DNA of 5,629 nucleotides. Source: a virus (lineage: Duplodnaviria > Heunggongvirae > Uroviricota > Caudoviricetes). Location: IMG/VR virus record IMGVR_UViG_2660238352_000003. One strand, given 5' to 3'. The notes beneath the pieces are model-generated. The model ran no database searches, was not told the origin of the DNA, and saw only the letters and a list, made by a program, of their open reading frames with translations. Position 1 is the stretch's first letter. The number at the start of each line of letters is the position of its first letter. A program made the position numbers and the translations under genes. Below are positions 2,235 to 2,983 of this stretch, piece by piece.

Positions 2235-2265
2235 TTCTGTCTCCCGTTAAATTACGTTAAGCAGA

Positions 2266-2295
2266 AATGTAGGATATCCAACATGCCAATGTCAA
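2266..2295 (-). promoter_or_regulatory. PR-like sigma70 promoter driving the Cro-like operon
   Basis: On the minus strand: -35 TTGACA (2295..2290), 18-nt spacer, -10 TACATT (2271..2266). The predicted start near 2259 gives a ~25-nt leader to the cro-like ATG at 2234. An 18-bp operator palindrome is embedded between the hexamers. Confidence 0.5.
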
Positions 2296-2331
2296 GAATC
2301 CTACATTGGCATGTGGTAGGATTGCCTACAT
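2267..2331. promoter_or_regulatory. OR-like operator cluster: three related 18-bp sites (2267-2284, 2289-2306, 2314-2331)
   Basis: Site a is ATGTAGGATATCCAACAT, a near-palindrome around GGATATCC. Site b is ATGTCAAGAATCCTACAT (right half conserved). Site c is TGGTAGGATTGCCTACAT (14 of 18 matches to the symmetric consensus). Centre-to-centre spacing is about 22 and 25 bp, between divergent cro-like and cI-like genes. Confidence 0.6.
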
Positions 2332-2983
2332 GATGAACATGAGTGATCGTATTCGCCAAAGGCGAAAAGAACTGAACCTGACACAACAAGCACTGGCTGA
2401 TTTGACTGGTGTGAACCGTGTCACGGTTACTGGATGGGAAAAGGACGACTACCAACCAAATGGAGCCAACCTTCAAGCCCTAGCCAACGCACTTAAATGC
2501 GATCCTCTGTGGCTTGTTAGCGGAAAAGGCTCGCCTGAACCAAAGATAAATCTAAAACCTGAAATATTCGCAGTTAAAAAAGTCCCCCTCATCTCGTGGG
2601 TTCAGGCGGGTTCATGGACAATGACGGAGCCTGGTGTCAGGAAAGAAGATGCTGAAGAGTGGGTTTATACTACCGCCCTTGTATCAGAAATGGCATTTGC
2701 ACTACGGGTCCGTGGTGATTCAATGACCAATCCCCTCGGCTCACCATCGATACCAGAAGGTTCTATCGTTATCGTAGAGCCAGATATTATTGATACAGAG
2801 TGTATTAACGGAAAAATCGTTGTTGCCCATATCAATGGTGGGCAAGAAGCGACACTCAAAAAATTTGTTGAGGACTGGCCGAACAGGTATCTCGTCCCAC
2901 TAAATCCTAACTATAAAACTATTGAATGCGGTGAGAACTGCAGAATAGTTGGTCTTGTCAAACAAGTAATAATGGATTTTTGA
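2330..2983 (+). CDS. cI-like prophage repressor: N-terminal HTH (XRE-type) plus C-terminal S24 LexA-like autopeptidase domain
   Basis: ORF track 2306..2983 begins at a TTG inside the operator cluster; the first ATGs are 2330, 2333 and 2339 (MSDRIRQRRKELNLTQQALADLTGVNRVTVTGWE...). The HTH region is followed by an Ala-Gly cleavage site (VQAGSW), the Ser motif VRGDSM and the Lys motif ATLKKF typical of LexA/cI S24 peptidases. The exact start is uncertain (2330 vs 2339); no strong SD, so possibly leaderless. Confidence 0.85.
   Translation: MMNMSDRIRQRRKELNLTQQALADLTGVNRVTVTGWEKDDYQPNGANLQALANALKCDPLWLVSGKGSPEPKINLKPEIFAVKKVPLISWVQAGSWTMTEPGVRKEDAEEWVYTTALVSEMAFALRVRGDSMTNPLGSPSIPEGSIVIVEPDIIDTECINGKIVVAHINGGQEATLKKFVEDWPNRYLVPLNPNYKTIECGENCRIVGLVKQVIMDF

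Follow-up and report, generated by a model that had tools for sequence, protein, structure and literature searches.

The gap between the divergent cro-like and cI-like genes of IMG/VR virus record IMGVR_UViG_2660238352_000003 (Caudoviricetes) raises the question of whether it holds an intact genetic switch and which of the known lambdoid switches it resembles. The stretch analysed, hereafter called the window, is 5,629 nucleotides long, and its open reading frames (ORFs) together with Pfam and PHROG matches identify it as the early regulatory region of an E. coli lambdoid prophage. An initial annotation had proposed that the gap contains three related 18-bp sites arranged like the right operator (OR) of phage lambda. 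With a probability of about 0.8, the region is indeed the OR of a functional lambdoid immunity module, in which cro, OR, cI, a terminator and the left operator with its promoter (OL/PL) follow one another between roughly 2010 and 3110 of the window. This reading is supported by a second operator past cI, by a phylogenetic footprint that goes together with a shared recognition helix, and by a lambda-like placement of the sites on the rightward promoter PR. Judged from the DNA, the module appears to be an intact lambdoid operator system of textbook design with a previously undescribed recognition sequence; a literature search with operator words and the name of the related mEp390 found no description of these operators or of the switch.

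Three related sites between cro and cI

The identities assigned to the two divergent genes, whose ORFs are separated by 95 bp, hold. The 65-aa Cro-like protein is a member of the P22_Cro family, falls into the PHROG class of transcriptional regulators and is annotated in RefSeq as a Cro/CI family regulator. The 217-aa repressor is annotated as a LexA family protein (WP_000981537.1) and consists of an HTH_3 and a Peptidase_S24 domain. Its matches in the PDB include lambda cI (7e-25) and the N-terminal domain of P22 c2 (4e-14), with the entries 1adr, 2r1j and 3jxb at about 4e-14 to 6e-14.

The sequence confirms the three 18-bp sites, named a, b and c, at the proposed coordinates (Table 1), and the computed site centres of 2275.5, 2297.5 and 2322.5 give the expected spacings of 22 and 25 bp. 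The sites differ in quality. The outer positions 2-7 and 12-17 correspond to the bases that are touched by the repressor in P22 (PMC4267663); counted over these, a and c each match at 11/12 positions and b at 9/12. All five mismatches of site b are located in its left half, which carries the -35 element of PR and matches at 3/6 outer positions, and its right half is a perfect half-site. The three sites are thus related, as claimed, but site b consists of a good half and a weak half and is no full palindrome. Similarly, the half-sites had been described as surrounding a GGATATCC core, which is true for site a and for the site at 3081-3098 beyond cI, but not for sites b and c. The central bases are ATAT in site a and ATTG in site c; in P22, a centre containing G/C reduces affinity (PMC4267663).

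A search of the whole window for 18-mers with at most five mismatches to the palindrome returned five sites only, namely a, b, c and two copies at 3046-3063 and 3081-3098. In 500 dinucleotide-preserving shuffles of the window, the mean number of such sites was 0.148 and the maximum was 2. The 9-mer half-site with at most one mismatch is present seven times, compared to an expectation of 0.98, and a count of seven was reached in 0/200 shuffles. A chance origin of this set of sites is excluded. The same five sites, and no further ones near the consensus, were found in 25 kb of phage Lys8385Vzw and 17 kb of an E. coli prophage. As the central four bases vary, as they do in the P22 sites, in which positions 8-11 are not contacted (PMC4267663), the consensus of the five sites is best written as ATGTWGG-N4-CCWACAT.

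PR and a second operator beyond cI

Promoter scan and coordinates agree with the proposed placement of site a on the -10 element of PR, of site b on its -35 element and of site c on the start of cI. Site a spans the PR spacer and covers 5/6 bases of the -10 element, and site b holds the entire -35 element. The last 2 nt of site c belong to the annotated start codon of cI (2330), and the site contains AGGA at 2318-2321, a possible Shine-Dalgarno sequence. Read from the sequence, PR would start at about 2258-2259 and cro would be preceded by the Shine-Dalgarno sequence GGGAGA (2245..2240).

The two site copies beyond cI had been overlooked by the initial annotation; with them, the module has three sites in OR and two in OL. 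The OL sites flank a PL-like promoter, which shares identical hexamers, the spacer length and the register with the proximal site with PR. Going by sequence and order, the second operator is placed and oriented like PL/OL of lambdoid genomes. The two OL sites are spaced 35 bp apart (about 3.3 helical turns), and no third site within five mismatches was found upstream of 3046 or downstream of 3098. The location of OL3 in imm21 is here taken up by the cI terminator, which was found by RNA folding and is not listed by a general terminator scan. In relatives, the stem sequences of the terminator differ, but a hairpin followed by a T run is kept at the same place.

In some genomes (loci L092 and L096), identity to the window ends abruptly at about 3112-3125, just past the predicted PL start. 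As far as the alignments indicate, the immunity module has its left boundary within the mosaic at this break.

Table 1. Positions of operator sites, promoters, terminator and genes in the window. Ranges joined by two dots descend along the minus strand.
Feature	Sequence or description	Position	Strand	Remark
OR site a (OR1-like)	ATGTAGGATATCCAACAT	2267-2284		1 mismatch to the perfect palindrome ATGTAGGATATCCTACAT
OR site b (OR2-like)	ATGTCAAGAATCCTACAT	2289-2306		5 mismatches to ATGTAGGATATCCTACAT
OR site c (OR3-like)	TGGTAGGATTGCCTACAT	2314-2331		4 mismatches to ATGTAGGATATCCTACAT
OL distal site	ATGTAGGATAACCAACAT	3046-3063		6 bp upstream of the PL -35 element
OL proximal site	ATGTTGGATATCCTACAT	3081-3098		exact reverse complement of site a
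PR-like promoter	-35 TTGACA, 18-bp spacer, -10 TACATT	2295..2290, 2271..2266	minus	consensus scan 10/12
PL-like promoter	-35 TTGACA, 18-bp spacer, -10 TACATT	3070-3075, 3094-3099	plus	consensus scan 10/12
Candidate PRM	TTGGCA, 17-bp spacer, CATGAT	2306-2311, 2329-2334	plus	consensus scan 9/12
Predicted intrinsic terminator after cI	GC stem-loop, then T run	3004-3029	plus	RNA fold -15.2 kcal/mol, z=-3.5
cro-like gene	65 aa, P22_Cro family	2037-2234	minus	Pfam PF14549, E=7.6e-22, above cutoff
cI-like repressor gene	217 aa, HTH_3 + Peptidase_S24	2330-2983	plus	Pfam, PHROG, PDB
CII-like gene	YmfL family, beside cro	1431-2009	minus	Pfam, PHROG
Rha/antirepressor-like ORF		286-1434	minus	Pfam, PHROG
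yfdP, yfdQ and yfdR-like genes		downstream of cI	plus	Pfam, PHROG

Conservation of sites and recognition helix in relatives

Relatives of the repressor were taken from IMG/VR viral contigs and from a set of genomes with a single representative per species. They fall into an Erwinia type (90-92% identical to the repressor of the window), an Enterobacter type (83-84%), a Pantoea type (76%) and mEp390 (61%). The segment GVNRVTVTGWE of the helix-turn-helix (HTH) motif is identical in these repressors, which are 61-92% identical to that of the window; P22 c2 has GVSNVAISQWE at this place. In the alignment, the Ala93-Gly94 cleavage site and the catalytic residues Ser131 and Lys177 are invariant, and all related lineages carry, besides this Ala-Gly site, Ser and Lys, a cro gene of the P22_Cro type with a conserved HTH motif.

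The sites of OR and OL are found at the same places in all relatives, and the hexamers of PR as well as the TTGACA and TACATT of PL are invariant, but the cro leader, the gaps between the sites and the flanking DNA have diverged. Among the 13 loci of the Enterobacter-type clade, which comprise 10 distinct sequences, 5/90 operator positions are variable compared to 140/216 third-codon positions of cI (Fisher p=5e-24), with synonymous sites nearly saturated. Within the operators of this clade, variation affects 2/70 outer and 3/20 central positions. Site a is invariant in 10 representative relatives and has no changes in the Enterobacter-type clade, and site c is nearly invariant in all relatives. 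In the distal OL site, the outer 7+7 bases are conserved and the central 4 bp differ in nearly every lineage.

One relative was found in a different state: at an Erwinia tracheiphila locus (L007 1501-2150), a cI orthologue with about 90% identity contains stops or a frameshift, and the operators are still recognisable. By its sequence, this locus is probably a decaying prophage.

Hypervariable gaps outside operator sites and promoter hexamers

Variation among close copies of the module is distributed differently. In 62 E. coli loci that encode a cI protein identical to that of the window, 37 haplotypes were found over positions 2010-3120, and polymorphism is concentrated in the gaps 2285-2287, 2307-2310 and 3077-3080, which belong to neither operator sites nor promoter hexamers and have 10, 9 and 8 alleles, respectively. 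The minimum number of events per site is 0.73 for the 22 gap positions (at least 16 events, five sites with three alleles), compared to 0.053 for third-codon positions, 0.126 for other non-coding DNA and 0.144 inside the operators, where all variants are rare. By this measure, polymorphism in the gaps exceeds that of third-codon positions about 14-fold. Eight RefSeq genomes reproduce the pattern, which is absent from the OR gaps of imm21-type control loci; in the more diverged Enterobacter clade, variation in the gaps roughly equals that at synonymous sites. It is conceivable, albeit with the odds against it, that the gaps are recurrent mutation targets or that diversifying selection retunes the strength of PR, PL and possibly the repressor maintenance promoter PRM among otherwise identical prophages. 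If this were true, the gaps would encode natural differences in spontaneous induction and, with them, in toxin output. Shiga-toxin phages are among these prophages.

The repeats might instead be targets of another factor, such as host LexA or the CII-like YmfL protein, or might form a DNA structure such as a cruciform. OR folds strongly as single-stranded DNA (-18.8 kcal/mol, z=-5.5) and contains a perfect 12-bp inverted repeat (2281-2292 / 2303-2314), from which a cruciform could form. This repeat is, however, allele-specific: the OR haplotype of the window is present in 2/84 related loci only, the commonest allele (G at 2307) breaks the repeat, and the variants have no compensating changes. 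The strong fold is a by-product of the repeated palindromic sites. Furthermore, no LexA box (CTGT-N8-ACAG with at most one mismatch) was found in OR or OL, and the sites track the recognition helix of the repressor across lineages. A role for another factor or for a structure is thus very improbable. The 12-bp inverted repeat was also rejected as a separate element, since it depends on the 2307 allele and is broken in most relatives. An Rfam scan detected no RNA family in OR or OL.

Candidate PRM and proposed mechanism of the switch

The best PRM candidate in OR (Table 1) has a -35 element that is not conserved in relatives. The scan that finds this candidate also misses the genuine PRM of lambda; the lack of a stronger match in OR is thus uninformative. 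The conserved ATGATGAAYATG has its third ATG at A2339. Transcription that began there from the candidate would put the centres of sites b and c at -41.5 and -16.5, respectively, a lambda-like spacing that makes this start an attractive fit by analogy. Two further candidates were considered. TAGGAT at 2317-2322, identified by eye as a possible -10 element with a leaderless start at A2330, is incompatible with activation because the centre of site b would then fall on the -35 region, at about -32; it might still serve as the -10 element of a repressible promoter. TACATT at 2302-2307 on the plus strand was rejected as a -10 element, since its final T is a G in most alleles.

The following scheme of who binds where, of cooperativity, of the order of site filling and of PRM is drawn by analogy with P22, phage 21 and lambda. 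The repressor would act as an HTH dimer with a LexA-like self-cleaving C-terminal domain and would recognise ATGTWGG-N4-CCWACAT. In the lysogen, one dimer is expected to bind tightly to site a, with its ATAT centre and 11/12 outer matches, and the weaker site b would be filled with the help of protein-protein contacts with the dimer at site a. Occupancy of both sites would occlude the -10 and -35 elements of PR, thereby keeping cro and the downstream early genes off, and repressor bound to the two OL sites would shut PL. Site c has a G/C-containing centre and overlaps the cI start and the possible Shine-Dalgarno sequence, an overlap that makes it the candidate through which cI would be negatively autoregulated and to which Cro would bind by preference. 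Upon DNA damage, RecA-stimulated self-cleavage of the repressor would empty the sites and free PR and PL. Cro made from PR after induction would then keep cI off.

Several observations weigh against the interpretation of the region as a functional OR. The binding events and transcripts assumed for this module are predictions. There is no convincing conserved PRM: the best candidate requires transcription to begin at the third ATG (2339) or close to it, its -35 element is the unconserved one described above, and a start at A2339 would be unusually close to its -10 element. As OL has two sites 35 bp apart, the logic of OL3-OR3 looping known from lambda is not simply transferable. Finally, site b is the least conserved site; it is degraded in the Pantoea and Erwinia types, and in mEp390 its left half is out of register, with an a-b distance of 23 instead of 22 bp.

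These properties of site b, together with the accumulation of its mismatches in the left half, would fit an OR that is effectively bipartite, with a and c as true dimer sites and b as a lone half-site by the -35 element that is unoccupied or marginal. In this case, repression of PR would depend on site a only, without a cooperative OR1-OR2 pair and without activation of PRM from site b. Lambdoid switches that lack cooperative binding exist, as the repressor of 933W is reported to be non-cooperative on adjacent sites (PMC3317979). However, mEp390 and the E. coli and Enterobacter types all keep the perfect 9-mer half-site of b (2298-2306), and the gaps flanking it vary freely. In addition, site b matches its consensus as well as OR2 of phage 21 matches its own, and it is located where OR2 of lambda is found relative to PR. 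A bipartite OR is therefore considered improbable, and the tripartite OR of a functional module remains the preferred reading. The proposal that the switch is intact rather than decayed is supported by phage Lys8385Vzw, which carries a 99.8% identical module and was induced with mitomycin C and plaque-purified (PMC7946995).

Distribution and significance of the module

The operator and the N-terminal region of cI are present in 141/5426 complete E. coli genomes (about 2.6%), always with at least 98.6% identity. At least eight complete E. coli chromosomes carry positions 1950-3050 with 100% identity, and six sequenced phage genomes carry them with 99.6-99.8% identity; these phage genomes are those of the Stx1 phage Lys8385Vzw, three Stx2c-converting phages, vB_EcoM-720R4 and SKA5. 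According to the genome paper of Lys8385Vzw, CI, Cro and CII are absent from this phage (PMC7946995). Contrary to this statement, its sequence contains all three, together with a complete OR and OL. The same cro-OR-cI module was also seen on the 43,671-bp circular 'plasmid unnamed3' of E. coli CT01 (NZ_CP081794.1, locus L096), which is probably an excised or circular phage genome.

By the operator ATGTWGG-N4-CCWACAT, prophages of Enterobacter, Pantoea and Erwinia-type contigs, and possibly mEp390 as well, can be assigned to the same immunity group as the module of the window, and predictions of superinfection immunity between these prophages become possible. Moreover, the operator sites are concrete targets for studying the control of induction and hence of toxin release.

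Neighbouring genes

Downstream of cro and the CII-like gene, two Rfam matches above the gathering score were found on the minus strand, the C4 antisense RNA (RF01695, 78.8 bits, 886-973) and isrK (RF01394, 58.7 bits, 998-1074). Both are located inside the annotated 382-aa 'Rha family' ORF, where they coincide with its Pfam 'Phage_ASH' segment, and the C-terminal 180 aa of the ORF match anti-repressor families of PHROG. The coincidence of Rfam and PHROG anti-repressor matches in this ORF points to an antirepressor cassette under RNA control downstream of cro-cII, comparable to P1 immI / Gifsy-1 isrK-anrP; the 'Rha family' ORF is possibly over-called. A perfect CTGT-N8-ACAG, which resembles a LexA box, is located at 1316-1331 (+), with the YmfL-like gene on one side and isrK on the other; in the window, such motifs are as frequent as expected by chance.

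At the other end of the window, the end of an IS66-family element (5397-5629) with an ORF for the transposase C-terminus (5428-5613, minus strand) adjoins yfdR. The best matches to the window end at 5396, and the junction of IS66 and yfdR is found in no complete E. coli genome of the collection. It therefore appears to be a private insertion of the insertion sequence (IS) in the early-left region of this prophage copy.

Comparison with known systems

A relationship to the e14 prophage of E. coli K-12 was considered and rejected, as a sensitive blastn search gave nothing outside this immunity type but one partial match of 70%. A close counterpart is mEp390, whose immunity region is uncharacterised. 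It shares the segment GVNRVTVTGWE, an identical site c, the five-site layout and the promoters with the module of the window. It differs in its repressor, which is 61% identical overall, in the a-b spacing of 23 bp, and in its half-sites, which tolerate A at position 6 (GTAAG).

Among the characterised systems, P22 and phage 21 are closest in their proteins and site format. The repressor is 45% identical to P22 c2, Cro belongs to the P22_Cro family, and the 18-bp sites have two-fold symmetry, their outer bases are conserved, and the central 4 bp, which are uncontacted in P22, vary (PMC4267663). As in these phages, OR3 adjoins the start codon of the repressor gene. The OR spacing of 22/25 bp resembles the 23/25 bp of imm21, the promoter-proximal OL sites are 35 bp apart in both (OL1-OL2 in imm21) with the same PL register, and site b is comparable in quality to OR2 of phage 21, which has four mismatches to its own consensus. 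However, the half-site is ATGTAGG here and ATTTAAG in P22, which differ at two positions, and the recognition helix is NRVTVTG instead of SNVAISQ. Because both operator sequence and recognition helix differ, the immunity specificity is expected to differ from that of P22 and phage 21. Furthermore, P22 and phage 21 have three OL sites (OL1-3), whereas two are recognisable here. The placement on PR is also different: in imm21, OR2 is found in the PR spacer and OR1 over the edge of the -10 element and the transcription start, but here site a occupies the PR spacer and the -10 element and site b lies over the -35 element.

This placement is that of lambda, in which the first site is likewise located in the PR spacer overlapping the -10 element and the second overlaps the -35 element. 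As in lambda, cI and cro are divergent, the three sites span 47 bp (24+23 in lambda, NC_001416; 22+25 here), and the C-terminal domain of the repressor is homologous to that of lambda cI (E=7e-25). If cI transcription started at A2339, the centring of site b at -41.5 would also be lambda-like, as OR2 and OR3 of lambda are 42 and 19 bp from the cI ATG. In contrast, the sites are 18 bp instead of 17 bp long and unrelated in sequence, the N-terminal domain of the repressor is P22-like, and Cro is from a fold family other than that of lambda Cro. Site c enters the cI start codon, whereas OR3 of lambda stops 11 nt before it. OL has two sites, and there is no rexAB between cI and OL, which places OR and OL about 770 bp apart. 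Of the OR1-OR2-OR3 logic of lambda that the initial annotation had assumed, the placement on PR and the 47-bp span stand, but the proteins and the site format are nearest to P22 and phage 21. As far as can be read from the DNA, the module thus appears to combine P22-type proteins and site format with a lambda-type placement of the sites on PR, which is a mechanistically small variation on the textbook design.

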